Origin: a virus
DNA length: 64,000 bases
Direction: 5' to 3' (one strand)
Virus record (IMG/VR): IMGVR_UViG_3300025280_000026
Span: 19,588 to 83,587 of that record
Shown here: in pieces, positions 8,283 to 63,990 of the stretch
Layout of the letters: every line of letters starts with the position of its first letter
Position numbering within the stretch: position 1 is the stretch's first letter
The notes under the pieces: generated by a model
Database searches by the model: none
What the model was told of the DNA's origin: nothing
The model's input: only the letters and a program-made list of their open reading frames with translations
Made by a program: the position numbers and the translations under genes

Positions 8283-8311
8283 AATCAAAATGGATTTTAT
8301 AGCTAACAATT

Positions 8312-8319
8312 ACTATTTA
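8312..8319 (+). promoter_or_regulatory. Putative late promoter ACTATTTA upstream of scaffold and capsid genes
   Basis: Instance of the recurring ACTAHTTA motif (see findings). Confidence 0.6.
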
Positions 8320-8354
8320 CTAACAGTATGTACTATTTTCAGGAGAAATAATTA

Positions 8355-11884: not shown

Positions 11885-11918
11885 AAGCCTCGTGTTCTTA
11901 TTGAACATGGGGTTTTTT
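11885..11918 (+). terminator. Probable terminator
   Basis: AAGCCTCGTGTTC-TTATT-GAACATGGGGTTT followed by a T tail. Confidence 0.6.
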
Positions 11919-11958
11919 GTTGTGTTATACTATTTATTATCAACCAAGGAGGCCTAAA

Positions 11959-12348
11959 ATGGGCAAACGTAGAAGAAGACTTCATAGTCCAAAATACGCT
12001 AAGAAATACGCCAAGGTAAGAGAAACTTATAATCGTTTAAGAGGCGTTGTAACAGCTGCAGAAGCTGATGGTGTAGTGACACCCGAAGAAGTAAAAGTAA
12101 TTGAAGAAGTTAAACAGGAAGTTGTTGAAGCAGTAGCAGAAATTAAAGCCGAACCAGTCGTTGAAGTCAAACCAAAACCAGTTGTTGAAGTCAAACCAAA
12201 ACCAGTTGTTGAAGTCAAACCAAAACCAGTTGTTCAGGCCCCTAAAAAATCTTTATTCTCAAGAACAACAAAAAAAGCGTCTGCAAGAAAAGCACCCGCA
12301 AGAAAAAAAGCTGCAAAAGTAACTAAGAAGTCTTCCATTAAGGAATGA
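11959..12348 (+). CDS. Basic protein with PVVEVKPK repeats and a histone H1-like KKA tail
   Basis: AGGAGG Shine-Dalgarno with ATG 11959; Arg/Lys-rich termini. Confidence 0.7.
   Translation: MGKRRRRLHSPKYAKKYAKVRETYNRLRGVVTAAEADGVVTPEEVKVIEEVKQEVVEAVAEIKAEPVVEVKPKPVVEVKPKPVVEVKPKPVVQAPKKSLFSRTTKKASARKAPARKKAAKVTKKSSIKE
12152..12234 (+). repeat. 24-bp coding tandem repeat, about 3.5 copies
   Basis: Unit AACCAGTYGTTGAAGTCAAACCAA. Confidence 0.9.
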
Positions 12349-15072: not shown

Positions 15073-15182
15073 GATTGCTAAAAGATGGAGTTTTGAGTTT
15101 AAAATTACTATTTATTAAAGAAGTTAGTATTAATCTAAACTCTATTGAAACACCAAGTTTCGCATAAATAGGAGAAAAATCC

Positions 15183-19370: not shown

Positions 19371-20261
19371 ATGTCTAGAAGAAATAACCGTGCCAGAGCA
19401 GGAAGCACAGAAAAAAAAGTTCCTGCTGATTCTTCTGTTGAGGCTACTCTAGCCTCACAAAGTGACGAGAGTGGTTCAAGTTTGCTGTCTTTCGTGACAC
19501 CAACAGAGTTTGTTCAGTTGCCTTCGAAGGGCAAATTTTACCCTTCAGAACATCCTTTACATAATAAAGATGTTGTTGAAATTAAGTACATGACTGCGAA
19601 ACACGAAGATATTCTGACTTCACAAACCTTGCTCAGGAAGGGAATCGCTATTGATCGGTTATTAGAAAGTCTTATTTTAGATAAAAGTATAAAATTAGAT
19701 AATTTGCTTATAGGAGATAAAAATGCAATTACAATAGCAGCCAGGAAAACCGGCTATGGAAGTGAATATGAAACTTCCATGGTATGCCCCGGCTGTGGCA
19801 TAAAACAAAATCATTCTTTTGATTTGGACGAGTTAAAACACAACTTTCCTTTTGAAGAAGAACTAGAAGAATTTAATATAGAATTAACTGCAAATAATAC
19901 ATTTTTAATTAATTTGCCCCAAACAAAAGTTGCTTTAGAAACTCGTTTGCTTAGTGACGCAGATGAGAGAGTATTGGAGAAGACAAGCAAAATGCGTAAA
20001 AAGCACGGTCTCGGCCGTGGAGAAATTACTTTAACCGATAGATTAAAAGCGGTTGTGTTAACAGCAGATGGAGAAACTAATAGAAATATTATAGAGGAAT
20101 TTATTGATAATATGCCAGCTCTTGATGCTAAATTTTTTAGAGCGGCGTATGCCGCGTTAACCCCAAATATCGAAATGAAACAAGAATATCGGTGTGATTC
20201 TTGTGGACACGAAGAGGAGGTAGATGTGCCCCTGTCGGCCGACTTTTTTTGGCCTGGGTGA
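19371..20261 (+). CDS. Baseplate hub/tail assembly chaperone (T4 gp26-like)
   Basis: LPSKGKFY, MTAKHEDIL, CPGC...CDSC zinc pairs and C-terminal DFFWP. Confidence 0.8.
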   Translation: MSRRNNRARAGSTEKKVPADSSVEATLASQSDESGSSLLSFVTPTEFVQLPSKGKFYPSEHPLHNKDVVEIKYMTAKHEDILTSQTLLRKGIAIDRLLESLILDKSIKLDNLLIGDKNAITIAARKTGYGSEYETSMVCPGCGIKQNHSFDLDELKHNFPFEEELEEFNIELTANNTFLINLPQTKVALETRLLSDADERVLEKTSKMRKKHGLGRGEITLTDRLKAVVLTADGETNRNIIEEFIDNMPALDAKFFRAAYAALTPNIEMKQEYRCDSCGHEEEVDVPLSADFFWPG

Positions 20262-29967: not shown

Positions 29968-31158
29968 TTGTATTTTCAAGTCATTGACGATAAGACAGAG
30001 TGCATTGGCGTTTACGCAAATGAAAAAATATATTATGACGAGATGCCAAAGGGCATTTCAAAGACATGGAAGTATACTTCGATCCTACGCGATAGAAATG
30101 ATATAGAATATGCTAGTTTATATTGTGGCGGAGAAAACTTGGAAAAAGCATGTCCAGAACATTTGCAAACGCGATTACACAATGTGCTTGACCGCTTCAA
30201 AGCATATTTAATTTCGTTTAAAGAAGCAAAGATATCGTTATATGATAATTGCTTTTACGATTTAGTTCCAGAGAGGTTCGTGTTAAAATATTGTGATGTG
30301 AAAAATCAAATTACAAAATATATTTTTGAGAATTACGACAAGCCCAAGAATTATAATTTTCTTGTCTCTCTAAGCAAAGTTCTGGAAGATATTAAATATC
30401 GAGCCCTTCAATTGGATTTTGATGGTTTTGATTTTGGTTCTGTGGGAGGAAGGGCCTTCCATAAAAAAATCAAGCAAATCAATCCTTATATCGCATATGA
30501 TATTTTTGGTTCTAGAACTGGACGCTTAACAACCAAGAAAAAAAGCTTTCCTATTTTGACTCTAGACAAGAAATATAGGGGCACCTTAAAACCAAATAAC
30601 GACTATTTTGTCGAATTAGACTTTAACTCAGCCGAGATCAGGACTTTCTTGGCCCTCCAAGGCCTCAAGCAGCCCAAGGAGGATATTCATACCTGGATTG
30701 GTGAGAACGTCTTTAGGGGCCAAATAACCCGTGAAGAAACAAAGAAGAAGTTTTTTGCATGGTTGTACAATCCTGAAGCAAAAAATGAGGTTCTGGAGAA
30801 AATTTTTGATAAAAATAAAATATTAGAGAAATATTGGGATGGTGAACAAGTTGAAACACACTATGATCGAAGAATAAAAGCTGGTAAGAAGCATGCCTTG
30901 AATTATTTAGTACAGAGTACCACAAGTGATTTATTTTTGCGTCGCGTGATCGACATATGGGATTTTTTGAAGGGAAGGTTAACCCACGTTGCTTTTTGTA
31001 TACATGATTCGTTGATATTAGATTTTTCTATAGAAGATAAGCCACTACTAGAAGGGATTATCGATACATTTTCAAATACAGAATTAGGGAGATTCAAAGC
31101 CAATGTGAGTATTGGAAAGAATTTTGGTGAAATGAGGAAACTAGAATGGAAACAGTAA
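29968..31158 (+). CDS. Minimal family A DNA polymerase-like protein, 396 aa
   Basis: RTGRLT, motif A ELDFNSAEIR, motif B REETKKKFFAWLY, ALNYLVQST and motif C IHDSL. Confidence 0.8.
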   Translation: MYFQVIDDKTECIGVYANEKIYYDEMPKGISKTWKYTSILRDRNDIEYASLYCGGENLEKACPEHLQTRLHNVLDRFKAYLISFKEAKISLYDNCFYDLVPERFVLKYCDVKNQITKYIFENYDKPKNYNFLVSLSKVLEDIKYRALQLDFDGFDFGSVGGRAFHKKIKQINPYIAYDIFGSRTGRLTTKKKSFPILTLDKKYRGTLKPNNDYFVELDFNSAEIRTFLALQGLKQPKEDIHTWIGENVFRGQITREETKKKFFAWLYNPEAKNEVLEKIFDKNKILEKYWDGEQVETHYDRRIKAGKKHALNYLVQSTTSDLFLRRVIDIWDFLKGRLTHVAFCIHDSLILDFSIEDKPLLEGIIDTFSNTELGRFKANVSIGKNFGEMRKLEWKQ

Positions 31159-32006
31159 TAGGTTTAGGTCAAGCTGGTTGTAAAATAGCAGAACAGTTTG
31201 CAAAATATCCCCAGTATGACGTTTATCGAATTGATTCTGAAAAGAGACAGGGAAACAAATTTAAACATATTAAAGAATGCGATTCACATGAGGAGTATGA
31301 GAACAAGTGTCCTTCATTCAAAAGATTTTTTAAAAATGTAAAACCACCTTATCTTTTTATACTTTCCGGCGCAGGATCCATTTCTGGCTCGGCCTTAAGA
31401 ATAATGGAACAATTAAATTCTGATGATATATACGTTCTATATATAAGGCCAGACACCTCGTTACTATCCGAGATCAAGAAAAAGCAGGAGAGAGCAGGTT
31501 TTCATGTGTTACAGGAATTCGCTCGTTCTGGGTTGCTCAAAAGAATGTTTTTGGTTGATAACACAAAAGTAGAAGAGCTTATACAAAATCTTCCAGTAAT
31601 CGGTTATTATGATAAATTAAATGAAATGATAGTATCTGTGATGCACATGATAAATTGTTGCATGAATTCTAAACCGGAGCTTGAAACATTCGACGATCCA
31701 CCAGAAACTGCGAGGATATCAACTTTGGGAATTGTTGAGCTAGAAACGGGCAAAGAAAGTTTATTTTTTGATTTAAAAATGCCTCGTGAAAAGGTATACT
31801 TCTATATGATTCATGAAGATAAATTAAAGAATGACGGAGAGTTATTAAAGACCATAACGAGCCAAGTTCGCTCAAGGATGGAAGGTGGCAACATACAGAC
31901 GTCATTTGGGATATACTCCACGGAATATGAACAAGGGTACGTTTATGTTCTTGCACACACTTCTTTAGTACAAAATGAAATTTTTTATTTGTCTGATAAG
32001 AATTAG
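31146..32006 (+). CDS. Tubulin/FtsZ-family GTPase-like protein (PhuZ/TubZ-like)
   Basis: N-terminal VIGLGQAGCKIA (T1 loop), IDS, a degenerate T4 loop SGAGSISGS, and LVDN. Confidence 0.75.
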   Translation: METVIGLGQAGCKIAEQFAKYPQYDVYRIDSEKRQGNKFKHIKECDSHEEYENKCPSFKRFFKNVKPPYLFILSGAGSISGSALRIMEQLNSDDIYVLYIRPDTSLLSEIKKKQERAGFHVLQEFARSGLLKRMFLVDNTKVEELIQNLPVIGYYDKLNEMIVSVMHMINCCMNSKPELETFDDPPETARISTLGIVELETGKESLFFDLKMPREKVYFYMIHEDKLKNDGELLKTITSQVRSRMEGGNIQTSFGIYSTEYEQGYVYVLAHTSLVQNEIFYLSDKN

Positions 32007-32088
32007 TGCTTATTATTTATACAGCGATAATCAACCTAGATGTTCAGAAAATTAGCTGGGCATACTATACCAAAAAAGGAGAATTTAC

Positions 32089-32841
32089 ATGGGTATTGAT
32101 ATGAAGAAGATGAAGTCAAAGCGGGAAGCTTTGCAAAACCGTGGAAGCGGTGGGAGTAACAAGGAAATGTTTTGGCGTCCTCAAGACGGCGAGACCACAA
32201 TCCGCATTGTCCCAACTGAAGACGGTGATCCGTTTAAGGATTTCTGGTTCCATTATAATGTGGGCAATAATCCTGGGTTTTTGAGCCCGAAGAAAAACTT
32301 CGGTGAGGATGATCCCCTTGATAGTTTTGTAAGGAGTCTCTTTAAGGAGGGTTCAGATGATAGCATCAAGATGGCCAAAAGTTTGATGGCCCGCCAACGT
32401 TTCTTCGCACCAGTCTTGGTTCGAGGGGAAGAGGACAAAGGAGTCCGTGTCTGGGGCTTCGGCAAGATGGCTTATCAAGAGTTGCTTAACCTTGTTCTCA
32501 ATCCAGACTATGGTGATATTACTGATATCTCAGAGGGTACCGATTTGGTAATTACTTACGGCAAACCCCCGGGAGCACAATTCCCGCAAACGACCATTAC
32601 GCCTCGCCGTCGGCCGTCACCCTTGTCAAGTGTCAAGAAGGATATCAAGACGTATCTTGAGCAAGTACCTGATTTTACTACGCTTTTCGAGCGTAAGACC
32701 CCGGTACACGTTCAAGGAATGCTCGATGAATTCCTCTTGGGCGAAGAAGCAGAGGAGAATTCAACGGAAACTAAGAAGTATAAAACAGATACTGACAAGG
32801 CATCTTCCGTTGATGAGGCTTTCGCAGAATTTCTTGGTTAA
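32089..32841 (+). CDS. Single-stranded DNA-binding protein (gp32-like)
   Basis: FWRP..G.T.IRIVP, GVRVWGFGK, YGDITD..EGTDL and acidic tail VDEAFAEFLG. Confidence 0.85.
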   Translation: MGIDMKKMKSKREALQNRGSGGSNKEMFWRPQDGETTIRIVPTEDGDPFKDFWFHYNVGNNPGFLSPKKNFGEDDPLDSFVRSLFKEGSDDSIKMAKSLMARQRFFAPVLVRGEEDKGVRVWGFGKMAYQELLNLVLNPDYGDITDISEGTDLVITYGKPPGAQFPQTTITPRRRPSPLSSVKKDIKTYLEQVPDFTTLFERKTPVHVQGMLDEFLLGEEAEENSTETKKYKTDTDKASSVDEAFAEFLG

Positions 32842-32849
32842 TTCCAAGA

Positions 32850-32883
32850 ACCACAGGGAGGCATAGGTTTATCAGGTGCCTCA
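32850..32883 (+). repeat. Copy 1 of a ~33-bp palindromic direct repeat
   Basis: ACCACAGGGAGGCATAGGTTTATCAGGTGCCTCA. Confidence 0.85.
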
Positions 32884-32948
32884 ATTTTCATTAATGGGAT
32901 GACGGTTGTATAATAACCAAAATATCCCCTAACTACAAGGAGAATAAA

Positions 32949-34250
32949 ATGAAAAAAATTAAATTAAATCTGCCGCCTGGGCAGCCATTCTTAACAAACG
33001 GGAATGGAGTATACGACGTGTATGTAATACCGTCTTTGGAATGCGGATTAGACCAAATACCAAAAGGTCTGAATCCTCGGGATCTGGACCCGGAGTGTAC
33101 AAAAGTTAAAAACATCAAGGCCAGCTTTTTAAAAAATGACAATATGTTTATAACCAAGTGCGGTGGCATGCAAGTTACTATAGATAACGACTCTTTTGAG
33201 TTCGATTCAAATAATAGTTGTGTCACTTTCACTTGCGAATGGGGTCATAATCCACCACGGCCGATCGCAGAAGGTCGATCTGGTCATTATGATGGTCAAC
33301 ATAGTGGGTACGCTATAACCACGGCTCTTCAAGAAAATCCAAATGTTAATGAGGAGGTTAAGGTGACCCTCGTGGAGCAGCGCGTGTTTAAAACTATTGA
33401 TGAAAACCGCGACGCCACCAACTGTTGGAATGACAGAACCAATCAAAAGCAGTCTAGCGAACAAAACATGCGAGGACTTTTTGATGATCTGAAAAGCAAT
33501 ATCAAATATACTGACCTTAAAAATATTGGATGGAAACAATATCAGAAAAACGTCAATGGTGAGAAAATAACTGCCGCGAATGAGGTACAACAAGTCATCA
33601 GACTTTTATCTACCTACTTCCCTCTAACTTATGAACCGGGCCTTGGTGTTCCTTATATCGCGACACTTCCTAAAGCTGGAGAGAAAACAGCGATCAATAT
33701 GTTAACAAACGACAAATATAAGCCGTATACTCTTCCCACACAAAAACATGTGGATTATGTTTTAGAACTGTCTGATTATATTCAGAGCACTATGGAGAAT
33801 ATTTTGGGCAGTGATTTTAATGAATTTCCATTAATTAAACAATCCGGCGCCAAGCAGCTTCTTAAGCAGCCAAGCAAAAGAAGATTTTTTAGAACAAATT
33901 TATTCAATGGTCAGGAAGCCATCGGTGCCCTTAACAAAGACTATATTTTGATGTTCGTATACGCAGTTGTTAGTAACTGCTATGAATGGGATGAAAAGAG
34001 ACAAGAATATGATCAAAAGCATTCTATTGCCTCCGCAAAAGCAATCTGGTCTGAATACGGCAAAAGGCTGCTCGATGAAGTTAATAGAGATTTTATAGCG
34101 TCTTTTGCAAATTCGAGCAAATCGAGAAAGTCTGATTTTGTTAATCAGCACACCAAGTGGGGTCTACTCTCACACTTAATTTTCAAAGGAATGAGGGATA
34201 ACAAGTGGAAGAATAGAATCAATACTTCTCTTAAAGCAAAGGCAGCTTAA
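32949..34250 (+). CDS. ParB/Srx-fold protein (AIPR/DGQHR-like)
   Basis: NPR...IKASF...F....GG...DGQH..YAI...V.VT...N pattern of AIPR/DndB-like ParB-fold domains. Confidence 0.55.
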   Translation: MKKIKLNLPPGQPFLTNGNGVYDVYVIPSLECGLDQIPKGLNPRDLDPECTKVKNIKASFLKNDNMFITKCGGMQVTIDNDSFEFDSNNSCVTFTCEWGHNPPRPIAEGRSGHYDGQHSGYAITTALQENPNVNEEVKVTLVEQRVFKTIDENRDATNCWNDRTNQKQSSEQNMRGLFDDLKSNIKYTDLKNIGWKQYQKNVNGEKITAANEVQQVIRLLSTYFPLTYEPGLGVPYIATLPKAGEKTAINMLTNDKYKPYTLPTQKHVDYVLELSDYIQSTMENILGSDFNEFPLIKQSGAKQLLKQPSKRRFFRTNLFNGQEAIGALNKDYILMFVYAVVSNCYEWDEKRQEYDQKHSIASAKAIWSEYGKRLLDEVNRDFIASFANSSKSRKSDFVNQHTKWGLLSHLIFKGMRDNKWKNRINTSLKAKAA

Positions 34251-34257
34251 ATGCCAC

Positions 34258-34290
34258 ACCACAGGGAGGCATGGGTTTATAGATGCCTCA
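34258..34290 (+). repeat. Copy 2 of the ~33-bp palindromic direct repeat
   Basis: ACCACAGGGAGGCATGGGTTTATAGATGCCTCA. Confidence 0.85.
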
Positions 34291-34309
34291 TTCAATATAT
34301 GGAGAAAAA

Positions 34310-35410
34310 GTGGCCAGGAAAGCTAAAAAACTAGGAAAGCTCAGCATGGATGACATGCGAAACCTAATCAACAGAAAAGCAGGATTAGACGTTGCACACG
34401 ATCTGAGAGAAGAGAATCCAACTGAAGTAAAACAATGGATTCCAACTGGATCAACTTGGCTGGATAATATCATATGCAGAGGCAAAAAAGCAGGAATTCC
34501 TGTTGGCAAGATATCAGAGATTGCTGGACTAGAGGGATCCGGAAAATCATGGATGGCTGCAGAAATCGCCACCAACGCTCAGGAAATGGGCATAGACGTC
34601 GTTTACTTCGATTCTGAATCTGCCATAGACCCAAGCCTCTTGGAGCGCTTAGGAGTTGATTTAAACCGGTTCCTGTACGTTCAAGCTTCGAGCGTGGAAT
34701 TTGTGTTGGAAACGATTGAGGAACTTCTTGGTTCGAATGATGGCCAAATGTTGTTCATTTGGGATTCGCTAGCTTTAACACCGGCAATTACAGATGTGGA
34801 GGGTGATTTTAATCCCCAATCATCGATGGCTGTCAAAGCTAGAATTTTGGCCAAAGGCATGTCGAAGCTGACAGTACCAATCGCGAATACACAATCAACG
34901 TTTTTGGTACTAAATCAACTTAAAACAAATATCGCATCCAATCCTTCACAAAGGATGCAAATAATGACTACTCCGTATGTGACCCCAGGTGGAAAAGCAA
35001 TGCATTACGCATATTCACTACGTATCTGGCTTACTGGTCGCAGGGCTAAATCTTCCTTTATTATGGATGGCGACGACCGCGTAGGATATCAGGTGCAAGT
35101 GAAACTTGAGAAATCACGTTTCGGAACATCTGGTCGAAGATGTCATTTTAAGATTATGTTTGCTGGAGAAGTTGGTATCCGTGATCAAGAGAGCTGGCTA
35201 GAAGCGTTAGCCGGTTCTGAAAACCTAACACAATCCGGTGCATGGTATACTTTACGTTATGAAGATGAGACCACTGAGAAATTTCAATCAAAAAATTGGG
35301 TTGAAAAAATAAATAGCAATGAACGCTTTCAAGAAAGAGTGTTGGAGCTAATGGAAGAAGAGATTGTTCGGAAATATCAAAAAAAGACTGAACAAACCTC
35401 GACTGCATAA
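34310..35410 (+). CDS. recA: RecA/UvsX recombinase
   Basis: IPTGS, Walker A GLEGSGKS, FDSE, IWDS, NQLK and TPGGKA. GTG start at 34310 follows GGAG. Confidence 0.93.
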   Translation: MARKAKKLGKLSMDDMRNLINRKAGLDVAHDLREENPTEVKQWIPTGSTWLDNIICRGKKAGIPVGKISEIAGLEGSGKSWMAAEIATNAQEMGIDVVYFDSESAIDPSLLERLGVDLNRFLYVQASSVEFVLETIEELLGSNDGQMLFIWDSLALTPAITDVEGDFNPQSSMAVKARILAKGMSKLTVPIANTQSTFLVLNQLKTNIASNPSQRMQIMTTPYVTPGGKAMHYAYSLRIWLTGRRAKSSFIMDGDDRVGYQVQVKLEKSRFGTSGRRCHFKIMFAGEVGIRDQESWLEALAGSENLTQSGAWYTLRYEDETTEKFQSKNWVEKINSNERFQERVLELMEEEIVRKYQKKTEQTSTA

Positions 35411-35492
35411 ATTGCTCCTGCGCCCAACCCCTAATATTAGTTTTTAAGCAAGAGTTTTTAAAAACTAATTAAATGTACACGAGGAGAATCGT

Positions 35493-35858
35493 ATGTCTAA
35501 AATAATTAAAAATATAGTTGCAGAAGTAATTGCAGACAAAGTGCAAGAAGCCGAATGTCTTATCCACACTTCTACAAAAGAAAATTTAACCGATGTCTTA
35601 ACTTCTATCCGAGCAATATCGGGAGTTACAATTGTTAATTTAGTTGGCTCTTCACAAAAAGTTTCGGAAGGTAGAACAGCATCATATTTGAAAATTAAGT
35701 TTATACCCAATATAACTTCTTCTGATAGCTATGTAAGAAACCTGGCGGATTACGTAAGAAATCTTCCAAGCGTCTTCACCTTCGAAGTCAAGAAAGTTGA
35801 AAACCTCAAACAGAAATTGGCGCGCAGGAAGCAACAAAAAGATATAATGAGTATTTAA
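35493..35858 (+). CDS. Hypothetical late protein
   Basis: ACTAATTA at 35464 and a GAGGAG Shine-Dalgarno. Confidence 0.65.
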   Translation: MSKIIKNIVAEVIADKVQEAECLIHTSTKENLTDVLTSIRAISGVTIVNLVGSSQKVSEGRTASYLKIKFIPNITSSDSYVRNLADYVRNLPSVFTFEVKKVENLKQKLARRKQQKDIMSI

Positions 35859-35874
35859 AGCACTAGAGGAAAAA

Positions 35875-36852
35875 TTGAAAACTAAAAGATTGCTGTTAAT
35901 TGATCAGCTAAACTTGTTTTTTAGATCTTACATTGTTGATCCTTCTTTGTCCACTAATGGCCAACCCATTGGAGGTTTAAAAGGAGTGATAAAGGCATTG
36001 CAAAAAATCATCCGCGAGGCGAAACCTGATGAAATTATTATTTGTTGGGATGGCCGCGGAGGTTCTACAAAGCGCAAAATTATAAATAAAAATTACAAAG
36101 AAGGCCGAAAGCCCCCACGCCTTAATCGAGGGGACAGAATTCTTACAGAATCAGAAGAGCGAACAAACAAAGTGTGGCAACTTCAGAGGTTAACTGAATA
36201 TTTCAATGAAATGCCGTTAATACAATTTATGTTCGATGGGGTCGAGGCCGATGACGTAATCGCTTATCTGGCAAAACACAAATATTATGAAGATTGGCAA
36301 AAAGTAATTGTTTCAAGTGACAAAGATTTTTTTCAACTTCTAGACACAACTACAGTTCTTTACAGACCAGTACAAAAACAGGTCTTAAACATGAAGACTT
36401 TAATAAAAAAACACAATATACATCCTAATAATTTTGCTCTTGCGAGAGCAATGGTGGGTGATAAGAGTGACAATCTTGAAGGTGTAGGTAATATTGGATT
36501 AGCCACGGCCTATAAAAGATTTCCTTTTTTACTGGATGAGAAGCCAGCTACCTTAACCGAGGTTTTAGATTATTCTAAAGAGCAGCTTAAAGAAAAAAAA
36601 CTCAAAGCATATGAAAATATTATTAACAACGCTGATATCTTAAAGAGAAACTACAAGATGATGCAATTATACGCTCCCATCCTGGACATAAATGCAAAGA
36701 AAATACTTCGCGAGACAGTGCAAGGAGCAAAAATTAGTTTTAATAAAACAGAGATTATTAAGATGATGACACAAGATGGTTTTGGAGAGGTAAATTTTAA
36801 TGAACTATTTGTCCATTTTAATAAGATAGTGGTTGACCAGAAAGCCATCTGA
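35875..36852 (+). CDS. 5'-3' exonuclease/flap endonuclease (T4 RNase H-like)
   Basis: LLID, CWDG, YKEGR, EADDVIA, SSDKDF and GDKSDN..GV. Confidence 0.92.
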   Translation: MKTKRLLLIDQLNLFFRSYIVDPSLSTNGQPIGGLKGVIKALQKIIREAKPDEIIICWDGRGGSTKRKIINKNYKEGRKPPRLNRGDRILTESEERTNKVWQLQRLTEYFNEMPLIQFMFDGVEADDVIAYLAKHKYYEDWQKVIVSSDKDFFQLLDTTTVLYRPVQKQVLNMKTLIKKHNIHPNNFALARAMVGDKSDNLEGVGNIGLATAYKRFPFLLDEKPATLTEVLDYSKEQLKEKKLKAYENIINNADILKRNYKMMQLYAPILDINAKKILRETVQGAKISFNKTEIIKMMTQDGFGEVNFNELFVHFNKIVVDQKAI

Positions 36853-36861
36853 CCTTATATT
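36833..36861 (+). promoter_or_regulatory. Sigma70-like promoter for the helicase gene
   Basis: TTGACC-N17-TATATT. Confidence 0.55.
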
Positions 36862-36875
36862 ATATCTAAAGGAAG

Positions 36876-38249
36876 ATGATGAAAGAAGAACAGGTTAATT
36901 TTGCAAAATATGGTAAAAGTTTTCAGGAAACATTAGCTCAACTAATATTAGAAGACCGGCCTTTTGCAGACCAAATCGAGGAAGTTATTGATGTTAACTT
37001 CTTTGAATTAAAATACCTTCGTGTTTTTATAAGTAAAGTATTTGAGTATCGAAAAAAATACGGGGTACATCCAACTAACAAGATTATAGCATCCGTGTTA
37101 AGAACGGAGCTGGATAATGAGAATGAAGCTGTCCAAAAACAAGCAAGAGATTATTTTGCTAGGACACTTGCCAGGCCGGCTTCAGACACAAAATACATCA
37201 AAGAGACTAGTCTTGACTTTTGTAAAAAACAAAACTTAAAAAGAGCAATTTTGAAGTCTGTTGAGTTACTTCAGTCGTCGTCTTATGATGAAATTAAGGA
37301 TGTCATTGATGAAGCTTTAAAATTGGGTGTTGATAATAATCACGGTCATGATTTCAAAAAGGATTTTGAACTTCGTTATACACTCCAAGCACGAAACCCT
37401 GTTTCGACTGGTTGGAAAATAATTGACGGCATCACAAAAAATGGTTTAGGCAAAGGAGAGTTGGGAGTCATTATTGCTCCAACCGGCGCGGGTAAATCAA
37501 TGGCCCTAGCCCACCTCGGCGCCATCGCTGTGAAGAATGGTAAAAGCGTCGTGCATTATACTTTGGAGCTTTCTGAAGCAATCACTGGCCAAAGATACGA
37601 TAGTTGTATAAGTGGTGTCAGATTAACCGATCTTCTTTCAATGAAAGATATGGTGTATGAAAAAATTACCGATGTTGAGGGATCTCTGATTATAAAAGAG
37701 TATCCAACTCGTTCAGCAACTATAAATATTTTGCGCGCTCATCTAGAAAAATTAAAAAAAAGAAATCAAGAAATCGATGTAATTTTAGTGGATTACGCCG
37801 ATCTGCTCAAACCTACATCAAATTATAAAGAGAAAAGGACTGAGTTGGAGTCTATTTATGAGAGTCTAAGAGCTTTAGCGCAAGAATATAATTGTCCAGT
37901 ATGGACAGCATCCCAAACTAATAGATCTGGACTTAATGCAGAAGTTGTGACAATGGAATCGATTTCAGAGGCTTTCAGTAAATGTTTTGTTGCAGATTTT
38001 ATACTTTCCATCTCTAGGACGATCAAAGATAAAAATGCAAATACCGGTAGAATGTTTGTTGCGAAGAACCGCAACGGCGTCGACGGTTTAGTATATCCAA
38101 TTTTTATGGAACCAGCGACCGTCAAAATTAAAGTATTCGAACAGGAAGAAGATGCCGCCGAACTGTTGAGAGAAAAGACTCCGAAAGAACAAGCTGATGC
38201 AATAAAAGAGAAATATAAGAATTTTAGAAGACAAGCAAGGGGGGCGTGA
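36876..38249 (+). CDS. dnaB: Replicative DnaB-like helicase (gp41-like)
   Basis: Walker A APTGAGKS, TLEL, LVDYADL, TASQTNR and KNRNG. Confidence 0.92.
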   Translation: MMKEEQVNFAKYGKSFQETLAQLILEDRPFADQIEEVIDVNFFELKYLRVFISKVFEYRKKYGVHPTNKIIASVLRTELDNENEAVQKQARDYFARTLARPASDTKYIKETSLDFCKKQNLKRAILKSVELLQSSSYDEIKDVIDEALKLGVDNNHGHDFKKDFELRYTLQARNPVSTGWKIIDGITKNGLGKGELGVIIAPTGAGKSMALAHLGAIAVKNGKSVVHYTLELSEAITGQRYDSCISGVRLTDLLSMKDMVYEKITDVEGSLIIKEYPTRSATINILRAHLEKLKKRNQEIDVILVDYADLLKPTSNYKEKRTELESIYESLRALAQEYNCPVWTASQTNRSGLNAEVVTMESISEAFSKCFVADFILSISRTIKDKNANTGRMFVAKNRNGVDGLVYPIFMEPATVKIKVFEQEEDAAELLREKTPKEQADAIKEKYKNFRRQARGA

Positions 38250-52244: not shown

Positions 52245-52784
52245 ATGAAAAAACGTCTACTTAACGAACAAAAAACTCGTCGCTTTATGAACCTGGCCGG
52301 TATTAAAAATCTAAGTGAAAACTTTATCGATGAAACTGATTTAGATGAAGTTGACGAATCCGCCACTGATGTTGATGAAGCTCACGATTTAGAGCCCCCT
52401 GAGCTGGATGAACCTGAAGATATGGATGAGCCTGAAGGCATGGATGAGCCTGAAGGCATGGATGAGCCTGAAGATATGGATGAGCCTGAAGATATGGATG
52501 AGCCTGAAGACGAAGTTTCTGGTGAGAGCCTGGCAGACTTTTTAGATTGGATATCTGGCAAGGTTGAGGATTACGCACAAGAACATGACATTGATTTTGA
52601 CGTCGAGGTAGAAGAACTGCCCGGCGACGAAGAAGAAGATTTAGGGCCTGACCTCGAACCCGAGGACGCCGACATCGAGGAACCCGGCATGGAGGGTGAA
52701 GAAGAGCCTGCTATGGAAGATGAGCTAATTGATGAAGTAACCAAGAGAGTTGCTCTTCGGTTACTCCGCGAAGCGCGACGATAA
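52245..52784 (+). CDS. Highly acidic repeat protein, probably an internal head or scaffold-like protein
   Basis: AGGAG with ATG 52245; late motif at 52169; RRFMNLAGI motif. Confidence 0.7.
   Translation: MKKRLLNEQKTRRFMNLAGIKNLSENFIDETDLDEVDESATDVDEAHDLEPPELDEPEDMDEPEGMDEPEGMDEPEDMDEPEDMDEPEDEVSGESLADFLDWISGKVEDYAQEHDIDFDVEVEELPGDEEEDLGPDLEPEDADIEEPGMEGEEEPAMEDELIDEVTKRVALRLLREARR
52405..52510 (+). repeat. 18-bp coding tandem repeat, about 6 copies (MDEPE[D/G])
   Basis: Unit TGGATGARCCTGAAGRYA. Confidence 0.9.
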
Positions 52785-63379: not shown

Positions 63380-63456
<77 letters not shown>

Positions 63457-63475
63457 TAATAAAAGGAGAAATACA

Positions 63476-63649
63476 ATGGCTGAATCAAGAATTACAAATA
63501 AAGAATTACAGGCTCAAGTTCAAAGCTTGAACACAAGGCTAGGCAAAATGGTCGATGACTTTTATGTTTTGAAAGAAGACATTGGTCAATTCAAGGCCGC
63601 CGTGGCTGATGATATACGCAAAGTCCTTAAAATTACCAATAAAAAATAA
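63476..63649 (+). CDS. Small coiled-coil protein, 57 aa
   Basis: AAGGAG Shine-Dalgarno with ATG 63476, between tRNA genes. Confidence 0.6.
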   Translation: MAESRITNKELQAQVQSLNTRLGKMVDDFYVLKEDIGQFKAAVADDIRKVLKITNKK

Positions 63650-63650
63650 A

Positions 63651-63723
63651 GGGCTTGTAGCTCAATGGTTAGAGCTACCGGCTCATAACCGGTAGGTTCC
63701 TGGTTCGAGTCCAGGCGGGCCCA
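63651..63723 (+). tRNA. tRNA with CAT anticodon (likely Ile2, lysidine type; Met possible), no encoded CCA
   Basis: Anticodon arm ACCGG-CTCATAA-CCGGT; acceptor stem GGGCTTG/CGGGCCC. Confidence 0.88.
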
Positions 63724-63730
63724 CTAACTT

Positions 63731-63803
63731 GCTGATGTAGCTCAACTGGTAGAGCAGCTGATTTGTAATCAGCAGGTTGTAGGTTCAAGTCCTGTCATCA
63801 GCT
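63731..63803 (+). tRNA. tRNA-Thr(TGT), no encoded CCA
   Basis: Anticodon arm GCTGA-TTTGTAA-TCAGC; acceptor stem GCTGATG/CATCAGC. Confidence 0.9.
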
Positions 63804-63814
63804 TAGGAATATTA

Positions 63815-63849
63815 ACCGAAGTGGTGGAATTGGCATACACAAGAGACTT
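63815..63849 (+). pseudogene. Orphan 5' half of a tRNA-Leu ending at the anticodon loop
   Basis: ACCGAAGTGGTGGAATTGGCATACACAAGAGACTT; no T arm or acceptor 3' strand follows. Confidence 0.65.
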
Positions 63850-63904
63850 TATTTATAAAGCGTTATGCAAAATCTAGCATTGAAATATAATCTAAATGAG
63901 TTAT

Positions 63905-63990
63905 GCGGGTATGGCGGAATTGGTATACGCAAGGCACTTAAAATGCCTCGATCTTTGATCATGCCGGTTCGAGTCCGGCTACCCGTACCA
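63905..63990 (+). tRNA. tRNA-Leu(TAA) with encoded CCA
   Basis: Anticodon arm AGGCA-CTTAAAA-TGCCT, long variable arm, GTTCGAGTC and terminal ACCA. Confidence 0.93.

Follow-up and report, generated by a model that had tools for sequence, protein, structure and literature searches.

The window analysed here, 64 kb of an 83.6-kb viral record in IMG/VR (IMGVR_UViG_3300025280_000026, positions 19,588 to 83,587; record completeness estimate, 46%), holds two short repeats that flank a single 433-amino acid gene, orf433, between the genes for a gp32-like single-stranded DNA-binding protein (SSB) and a RecA/UvsX-like recombinase. Each repeat is a copy of an RNA pseudoknot of about 42 nt, widespread but uncatalogued, which has been doubled here through the insertion of an accessory gene alongside it. 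A first-pass annotation, made from the letters of the window, had noticed both repeats and placed them correctly; the duplication is real, and the description of them as an unannotated cis-regulatory RNA motif or protein-binding site proves apt, in that the motif is conserved beyond this phage, covaries in two helices and belongs to no Rfam family. That it is a conserved structured element of the sense strand is, in our judgement, almost certain, and we consider it probable that the motif acts as an RNA element in cis. The fold of the motif, its conservation, placement and copy number, and the boundaries of the cassettes are established by the comparisons below; its action as RNA, its role as stabiliser or attenuator and the route of recombination are inferred.

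There are exactly two occurrences of the 15-mer ACCACAGGGAGGCAT in the window and exactly two in the whole record, the pattern GAGGCAY-N7-15-RTGCCTC has two matches as against none in 100 shuffles, and a covariance model built from the stem alone (R1), which gives 138 copies in 100 loci, scores the window copies at 54 bits each (54.0 for copy 1 and 54.4 for copy 2), with 9 bits for the next best match in the 64 kb. Copy 1 (32850-32883, plus strand) begins 8 nt past the TAA of the SSB gene (32839-32841) and copy 2 (34258-34290, plus strand) begins 7 nt past the TAA of orf433 (34248-34250), with a ribosome-binding site (RBS) 3' of each, so that the closeness to a stop codon and the order of the signals are as first described. 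In copy 1, the 5' strand of the first stem (S1), ACC, occupies 32850-52, loop 1 (L1), ACAGG, 32853-57, the 5' arm of the second stem (S2), GAGGCAU, 32858-64, and the loop 32865-75, within which lies the 3' strand of S1, GGU (32866-68); the 3' arm of S2, GUGCCUC, is at 32876-82 and a last A at 32883. The same parts of copy 2 are ACC (34258-60), ACAGG (34261-65), GAGGCAU (34266-72), the loop (34273-82) with GGU inside it (34274-76), AUGCCUC (34283-89) and A (34290). The 7-bp stem is predicted in both copies, with a closing U·G pair in copy 1 and U-A in copy 2. The 8-nt leader that had been called unpaired is not so over its first three nucleotides, where ACC pairs with the loop nucleotides GGU. 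A further hairpin, reported over the SSB stop codon (TTCTTGG-TTAATT-CCAAGAA, 32831-32850, plus strand), is indeed predicted in the minimum free energy fold, but it is lineage-specific: only the closest relatives have it, and because L020 and L022 (related loci carry the prefix L) alter it without compensation, it is without comparative support.

Across the family, the motif follows the consensus N3-R-CAGG-[GAGGCAY]-R-N3-(U)UA(U)YAG-[RUGCCUC]-A and forms an H-type pseudoknot, with an S1 of 3-5 bp in which loop nucleotides 2-4 are the partners of the trinucleotide ahead of RCAGG, and an S2 of 7 bp (GAGGCAY/RUGCCUC). The covariation check proposed in the first-pass annotation, run on the relatives' copies, found compensatory changes in both helices. 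S1 is seen as ACC/GGU, CCC/GGG, UCC/GGA, GCC/GGC, AGC/GCU, CGC/GCG and GGC/GCC, and S2 shows compensatory changes at five positions (G-C/A-U, A-U/G-C, G-C/A-U, A-U/C-G and C-G/U-A). Among 136 distinct copies, 99.4% of cells are paired versus 90.5% in shuffles, double-sided changes occur in 7 of 10 pairs, and not one of 500 shuffles reaches any of these measures; when the partner column is shifted by one, pairing falls to 42-46%. When S1 is tested without an alignment, with the invariant flanks as anchors, pair 3 proves to be paired in 95.5% of copies versus 46% after shuffling (shuffle maximum, 60%), with pair types CG50/AU46/GC4/UA3, and the same test in a second, variant subgroup gives 100% versus 45%. 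Loops are 9-11 nt long, and in long-loop variants S1 grows to 5 bp (ACGGC/GCCGU, ACAGC/GCUGU, CCCGC/GCGGG). G·U pairs number 25 versus 3 A·C mismatches, and the sense strand is therefore the folding strand. Five loci carry an extra hairpin of about 25 nt in loop 3, ending in UAAUAG (L050:7510-7575, L062:2301-2366, L060:1750-1814, L041:1579-1643 and L283), and added loop hairpins of this kind are typical of structured RNAs. About 20 nt of the 42-nt knot are near-invariant, unpaired ones included (CAGG, AG and the A at +1), and median identity of the motif is 79% at the nucleotide level, whereas the adjacent SSB proteins have a median amino-acid identity of 55% (minimum 35%). A 42-nt element conserved above the essential proteins that neighbour it must, therefore, have some specific job.

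What that job might be is a matter of weighing several readings. A knot with so many fixed positions, including unpaired ones, might represent a new class of small pseudoknot riboswitch, or a self-cleaving ribozyme that would cut the polycistronic mRNA between cistrons; its size and topology are like those of small pseudoknot riboswitches, its loop 3 tolerates insertion of a variable hairpin, and in many copies a U tract follows the aptamer-like fold. Nonetheless, we consider this reading improbable. The suggested Infernal/Rfam check matched no family: with Rfam 15, the stretch from 30000 to 37000 of the window gave only noise below gathering scores at E<=10, and an 86-nt query around copy 2, also taken to E<=10, returned a 10-bit antisense match to ryfA as its sole match and no family, STAXI, preQ1, SAM-II/V, guanidine-III, pistol and twister included. 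Of 112 predicted folds, 92 leave the downstream Shine-Dalgarno sequence (SD) free and only 20-22 pair it, whether the full fold or one with the 5' arm removed is considered, on which grounds a switch that sequesters the SD was rejected. Further, the genes that follow the motif (FKBP, Hc1, methylase, RecA and polymerase) are unrelated in function, unlike those behind a metabolite switch.

The distribution of the motif points to phages. With RecA as the query we gathered 20 viral loci, most of which carry the motif, on the coding strand every time, and a pattern scan of IMG/VR found at least 119 stretches, to which a second pattern, written for the variant subgroup, added 61, which brings the total to at least 180 viral contigs, most of them marine. 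In five records of 180-204 kb, four of them complete, there are 1-4 copies per genome, clustered at a single locus except in G003, which has a second site. A nucleotide search of 50,697 cultured-phage records found no match to the motif or the locus, and a pattern scan of prokaryotes (one genome each for about 186,000 species, 596 Gb) gave 133 matches in 120 stretches, which equals the chance expectation; only two prokaryotic metagenome-assembled contigs (L169 and L249) agree with the true motif in leader, loop and context. With just two genuine-looking matches in prokaryotes, the element is essentially viral. No RNA run is listed among the sequencing runs that contain the motif. The DNA runs that contain the window are marine metagenomes, and since the nearest cultured SSB, that of Flavobacterium phage immuto, is only 37% identical, the lineage is an uncultured marine one. 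The variant subgroup (L273, L274, L275, L277, L290, L302 and relatives) comprises contigs of 15-75 kb with a GC-rich leader, a 16-nt loop (GCNNNGGUC...CAG) and an S1 of 5 bp, and its gene contexts include an AAA_5 ATPase, a protein of unknown family of about 460 aa followed by a helicase, and a Sak4-like ATPase with a 212-aa unknown protein and a UDG-PolA fusion. The DNAVirus_N catalogue of structured-RNA candidates from IMG/VR lists 12 candidates upstream of GP32 genes (PMC10690425); these come from the same data source and are the same kind of object, but theirs lie upstream of gp32 and the motif described here lies downstream. The motif may be among the 8,495 unnamed IMG/VR candidates of that study.

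Placement with respect to genes is as constrained as the fold. For 134 of 137 copies, a same-strand open reading frame (ORF) terminates no more than 120 nt upstream; in 111 of those 134, 5-12 nt separate its stop codon from S1, with a mode of 7-8, and UAA is the commonest stop ahead of the motif (82 of 134). A position 7-8 nt past the stop would, given the ribosome footprint, be about the closest at which a fold escapes melting by the terminating ribosome. On the other side, the first position after the stem is A in 88% of copies, the next nine positions have only 0-4% G, and U reaches 55-68% at +4 to +7, compared with a background, taken ahead of 780 other genes of these loci, of 20% G and 27% T. 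The median distance to the next start codon is 24 nt, and 120 of 137 copies have a gene start within 80 nt. An RBS follows directly on most copies, while after some a terminator, a promoter or a tRNA gene takes its place; in the window, a promoter-like site follows copy 1 alone. The suggestion that the element controls recA is thus too narrow, since RecA is encoded immediately downstream of only 20 of 138 copies and the tightest tie is to the upstream stop codon. Two other translational roles were considered at this junction. A read-through or frameshift signal was rejected, as the frame through the motif differs between loci and no slippery site was seen on inspection, and an upstream ORF running from the RUG of the 3' arm to the next start codon was found in 38 of 120 copies versus 24-25 in control frames, which is too weak.

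A stem near a stop codon with U residues behind it invites the simplest explanation, namely an ordinary intrinsic terminator that has been duplicated, or a chance repeat, and plain terminators do stand at the same position in relatives: in L014 and L016-18, where SSB adjoins recA, a GC hairpin with a T-run occupies the usual spot of the motif, and in L006 and L019 the copy after SSB is replaced by such a hairpin. Copy 1, moreover, has its stem plus some U's (UUUU at +3 to +6), so that the initial statement that neither copy has a U tail holds for copy 2 only. At the same time, the judgement that these are not standard terminators stands, as a consensus terminator scan makes no call, copy 2 has no U run, and U enrichment across the family starts only at +4. 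Sequence, loop and leader are kept across phages as far apart as the SSB identities above indicate, the covariation between leader and loop would serve no role in a terminator, and the chance expectation for the pattern is zero. We therefore regard this explanation as very improbable. In three of the terminator-bearing relatives, recA starts only 15-20 nt past a strong GC hairpin with a T-run and has no visible promoter (L014:3123-3182, L016:3640-3694 and L018:2856-2925), so that it must rely there on read-through.

The reading that we tentatively prefer, while holding it at somewhat less than an even chance, is that of a cis-acting intercistronic element with two effects, protection of the upstream message at its 3' end and attenuation or insulation of the cistron that follows. 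The pseudoknot would be transcribed within the rightward mRNA that carries the SSB gene and would act in cis between cistrons, seated as near to the preceding stop codon as the terminating ribosome permits (7-8 nt). The compact knot with its invariant loop nucleotides (CAGG and ...AG), followed by the A and the G-free, U-rich tail, would mark and protect the 3' end of a heavily used message, that of SSB or of a preceding cargo gene, and would attenuate or insulate the next cistron, doing the same job as the hairpin-plus-U terminator found there in distant relatives; the invariant unpaired nucleotides would suggest a conserved factor or a tertiary fold. Because related phages share it almost letter for letter, the element would double as a patch of homology at which accessory genes could come and go, every arrival adding or restoring a copy, and an arrival of this kind would explain why orf433 is bracketed by two copies. 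In favour of this reading are the tight coupling to the upstream stop, the U-rich tail, the plain terminators at the same place in relatives, and the fact that the motif follows abundantly needed proteins (SSB and, once, capsid). Several observations weigh against it. The U tract is short, weak and offset by 2-4 nt, with UUUU within 10 nt of the stem in only 58 of 137 copies; the terminator scan makes no call, and the loop of 9-11 nt is longer than the 3-8 nt of an intrinsic terminator. A scan places a separate canonical terminator behind 3 of 137 copies, a sign that efficient termination is not what the motif itself provides. Invariant unpaired nucleotides are more than a simple stabiliser would require, and they call for a partner. 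Given how often a gene starts within 80 nt, a role in the downstream 5' untranslated region fits equally well, and a generic 3' element leaves the linkage to gp32-type SSB genes unexplained.

That linkage is the basis of the main rival. Of 138 copies, 71 have a gp32-type SSB gene as their immediate upstream neighbour, 116 have one at some point upstream on the same strand, and 103 have RecA encoded downstream; an SSB gene is directly downstream of only 1 of 174 copies. By analogy with the gene 32 operator of phage T4, the motif might be a translational operator responsive to SSB, in which the gp32-like protein would nucleate on the pseudoknot and spread over the G-free, U/A-rich stretch onto the RBS, repressing the next cistron (recA, orf144 or cargo) when free SSB accumulates, in effect moving the logic of T4 gene 32 to the 3' side of the SSB gene. 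We consider this possible, if on balance doubtful. The two-part anatomy resembles that of the T4 operator, a pseudoknot of about 28 nt plus an unstructured A/U-rich stretch with the RBS (PMC535899), and the short distance to the next start, the unpaired SD and the G-free 3' flank are all as such an operator would have them; some copies of the second subgroup again follow gp32-like genes. The likeness to the T4, T2 and RB69 operators extends to the H-type topology, the 7-bp second stem and the link to a gp32-family SSB gene, and, in part, to the unstructured, G-poor, A/U-rich stretch leading into the RBS; even the mobile gene segG beside the T4 pseudoknot has its counterpart in the cargo genes here (PMC535899). 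The differences are as plain. In T4 the element is 5' of gene 32, the gene that it controls, but the motif lies 3' of the SSB gene and outside its initiation region, and T4-style autoregulation of SSB translation is therefore ruled out; the motif has an S1 of only 3-5 bp and a loop 1 of 5 nt (RCAGG), its spacing to the start is about 24 nt whereas that in T4 exceeds 40 nt and contains UUAAA repeats, and no sequence similarity was found. In addition, some copies follow genes other than SSB (the major capsid gene once, in L066, with the copy about 55 nt after it, an AAA_5 ATPase several times and proteins of unknown family several times), some precede a terminator, promoter or tRNA gene and not an RBS, and distant relatives manage without the motif.

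The second feature of the motif is its association with gene gain and loss. The interval between SSB and recA is 55-70 nt in L014 and L016-18, about 500 nt with one small gene (orf144) in L003, L020 and L022, and 2.2-4.3 kb of assorted genes in eight other relatives; L005 has the arrangement of the window plus orf144. The interval looks like an island of accessory genes. Arrays of 2-4 copies, with single genes or short gene sets between them, are present at 31 loci, and the cargo includes many FKBP-type isomerases as well as Hc1 histone-like proteins, a Dam-type methylase, GmrSD_N-like, NsnA-like and MzaB-like proteins, and helicases. Among the cargo genes beside the motif, of which L010:1884-3158, L042:1748-3352, L054:6752-8302, L019:3659-4495 and L011:3597-4964 are examples, those of a defence-like character are the NsnA-like protein, an MzaB-like HATPase, the Dam-type methylase and a weak GmrSD_N match. 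In the window, comparison with L020 and L022 resolves the orf433 unit into four parts: a leader of 66 nt that contains a TATAAT box and RBS, the gene, its TAA plus 7 nt, and a copy of the motif. The junction of this unit with the resident copy falls exactly after ...GCCUCA, and the window's loss of orf144 shares the same left boundary. The notion of a recombination scar fails as it was worded, but the idea beneath it survives in these indel breakpoints, which fall exactly at the 3' edge of the motif. As the first-pass annotation had proposed to check, relatives that lack the 433-aa gene (L020, L022 and L003) carry one copy at the same place. Since such relatives hold one copy, and since the two window copies differ in loop and closing pair and yet can each fold, the motif is a pre-existing functional unit and not debris.

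Breakpoints at the edge of a repeated structure raise the possibility that the site acts as DNA, its RNA being irrelevant, as a single-stranded fold for recombinase or replication proteins akin to attC or an IS200-like site, or as a signal for priming or SSB loading. Arrays in which an ORF is followed by a site resemble integron cassettes, the breakpoints lie at the motif edge, and the location between the SSB and RecA genes suits such a role. Where contigs from four other marine samples match the window, they do so only across the motif, and they diverge at 32851, 32884-88, 34258 and 34292, and the coverage of the window by metagenome contigs peaks in the bins that hold the two copies. Copies within a genome are also more alike than same-position copies in a close relative, as recombining repeats would be: the window pair differs at 4 sites and the L005 pair at 2, as against 5-6 for same-position copies of the window and L005, and over all loci the copies within a locus differ at 6.02 sites versus 6.98 when shuffled (46 of 5000 permutations). 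This likeness fits gene conversion or local duplication. Nonetheless, we think a DNA-level site distinctly unlikely. Tyrosine recombinases (PF00589), Y1 transposases (PF01797) and serine recombinases (PF00239) are absent from five motif-bearing records of about 190 kb in searches that included positive controls, and any exchange mediated by the motif would most likely proceed by homologous recombination. In most phages the motif is a single copy without a cassette, with 16 of 138 copies lying directly between SSB and recA without a cargo gene, and its orientation, always with transcription, and its tight stop and RBS spacing are sensible for an mRNA and not for a DNA site. No joint that skips orf433 and connects the two copies is present in contigs of four marine DNA runs, although contigs drop rare variants and the absence of such joints is not implied. 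The attC sites of integrons conserve structure but not sequence, fold as single-stranded DNA and need IntI; the motif shares with them the repeated order of ORF and structured site at one hotspot, beginning right after the stop codon, but differs in its sequence conservation, which is far above that of attC, in its pseudoknot fold and in the lack of an integrase in the five genomes.

Two further elements invite comparison. The promoter-early stem-loops (PeSLs) of T4-type phages are short conserved motifs that bracket variable ORFs in hyperplastic regions, for which recombination-mediated shuffling has been proposed (PMC2839356, PMC4122927). The motif likewise brackets variable ORFs, has indel breakpoints at its edge and, after copy 1, a sigma-70-like promoter. 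A PeSL, however, is a terminator hairpin plus an early promoter, whereas the motif is a pseudoknot with a covarying leader and loop and mostly no promoter; PeSLs occur in many copies over several regions, whereas the motif occurs in 1-4 copies at nearly always one locus, and it is conserved across very divergent phages. STAXI (Weinberg et al. 2010) is a repeated pseudoknot near SSB and other DNA-handling or anti-restriction genes, whose action as RNA or single-stranded DNA is debated (PMC2864571). The repeated pseudoknot near SSB genes is common to both, but STAXI units are directly in tandem, 2-3 per site, with UUCG tetraloops, and the copies described here are whole ORFs apart and have no Rfam match. 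Overall, the element comes nearest in its working to a hybrid of the gene 32 pseudoknot operator and a PeSL, yet it fails defining features of each, and by these analogies it may be described as a cis-acting structured phage RNA, absent from Rfam, that also marks cassette boundaries. The flanking of cassettes may itself be a by-product of conservation, as has been proposed for the PeSLs of T4-type phages, and as such would be compatible with the intercistronic stabiliser or attenuator, the SSB operator and the riboswitch or ribozyme alike.

A bolder proposal would join the two features. Large marine phages might possess an undescribed cassette system in which a structured site, read by a dedicated factor (possibly the gp32-like SSB and RecA pair, or a ligand), both controls the expression of accessory genes (for defence or counter-defence) lodged between SSB and RecA and directs their capture and exchange, as an integrase-free analogue of the integron; equally, the site might found a new class of small riboswitch or ribozyme. 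We rate this proposal as unlikely. Being short enough to synthesise, the motif gives access to gene regulation in a major group of marine phages of about 190 kb that has no cultured member. It marks a hotspot for the swapping of defence-like and accessory genes, so that searches for such cargo can be keyed on it, and it provides a natural test of whether gp32-type SSB proteins outside the T4 group use RNA pseudoknots as regulatory targets.

The genes around the repeats all run rightward, in the order DNA polymerase A C-terminal piece, orf286, gp32-like SSB, orf433, RecA/UvsX-like recombinase, orf121, 5'-3' exonuclease and DnaB-like helicase. The SSB gene (32089-32841, plus strand; 250 aa), whose stop precedes copy 1, matches Pfam gp32 at E=1e-11 and PHROG 1192, an SSB family, at E=3.6e-26. 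The leader of the orf433 cassette (32884-32948, plus strand) contains the U4 tract, a sigma-70-like promoter (TTTTCA-18-TATAAT, 32885-32914) and the RBS AAGGAG; it is present in L005 as well, there with TACAAT. The inserted cargo gene itself, orf433 (32949-34250, plus strand), is present in L005 and absent from L020, L022 and L003. Its product has no Pfam, PHROG, PADLOC or PDB sequence match and does not match the AIPR family of Pfam (PF10592) even at E<=10, one of 10 homologues reaching E=0.17. Language-model and predicted-structure neighbours suggest, as a lead only, that it is AIPR-like, 28 of its 30 Atlas neighbours being AIPR proteins (score 0.97, TM 0.52-0.66), and the motif GHYDGQH is invariant in the 10 homologues, all of them unnamed, so that orf433 may be called an AIPR-like or DGQH-motif protein at the strength of a lead.

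The recombinase gene (34310-35410, plus strand; Pfam RecA, E=1.6e-35) is listed by the ORF program as beginning with ATG at 34283, inside the 3' arm of copy 2. In relatives, recA begins ATG GCA AGG AAA GCT AAA (MARKAKK), which aligns to GTG GCC AGG AAA GCT AAA of the window, and because the relatives' start aligns there, the true start is probably GTG at 34310, with GGAG at 34301-04 as its RBS. Of the DNA polymerase piece at 29968-31158, only the last ~100 residues or so match DNA_pol_A (profile positions 280-379), and the polymerase of the window may be split or highly diverged. A promoter-like box, TTACTATTTAYTAA, is repeated at 8287-8323, 11904-11939 and 15082-15118 of the window, and boxes of the form GTT(G/A)CTATATTA, similar to it, precede orf144 or recA in relatives (L007, about 2700; L010, about 4950); the repeated box may represent a phage-specific class of promoter. 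Elsewhere in the window, in-frame tandem repeats are found at 52387-52527 and 12128-12247, as 18 nt repeated six times (acidic, of the MDEPEG type) and 24 nt repeated four times, and four consecutive tRNA genes (Arg-tct, Met-cat, Thr-tgt and Leu-taa) lie at 63380-63990.

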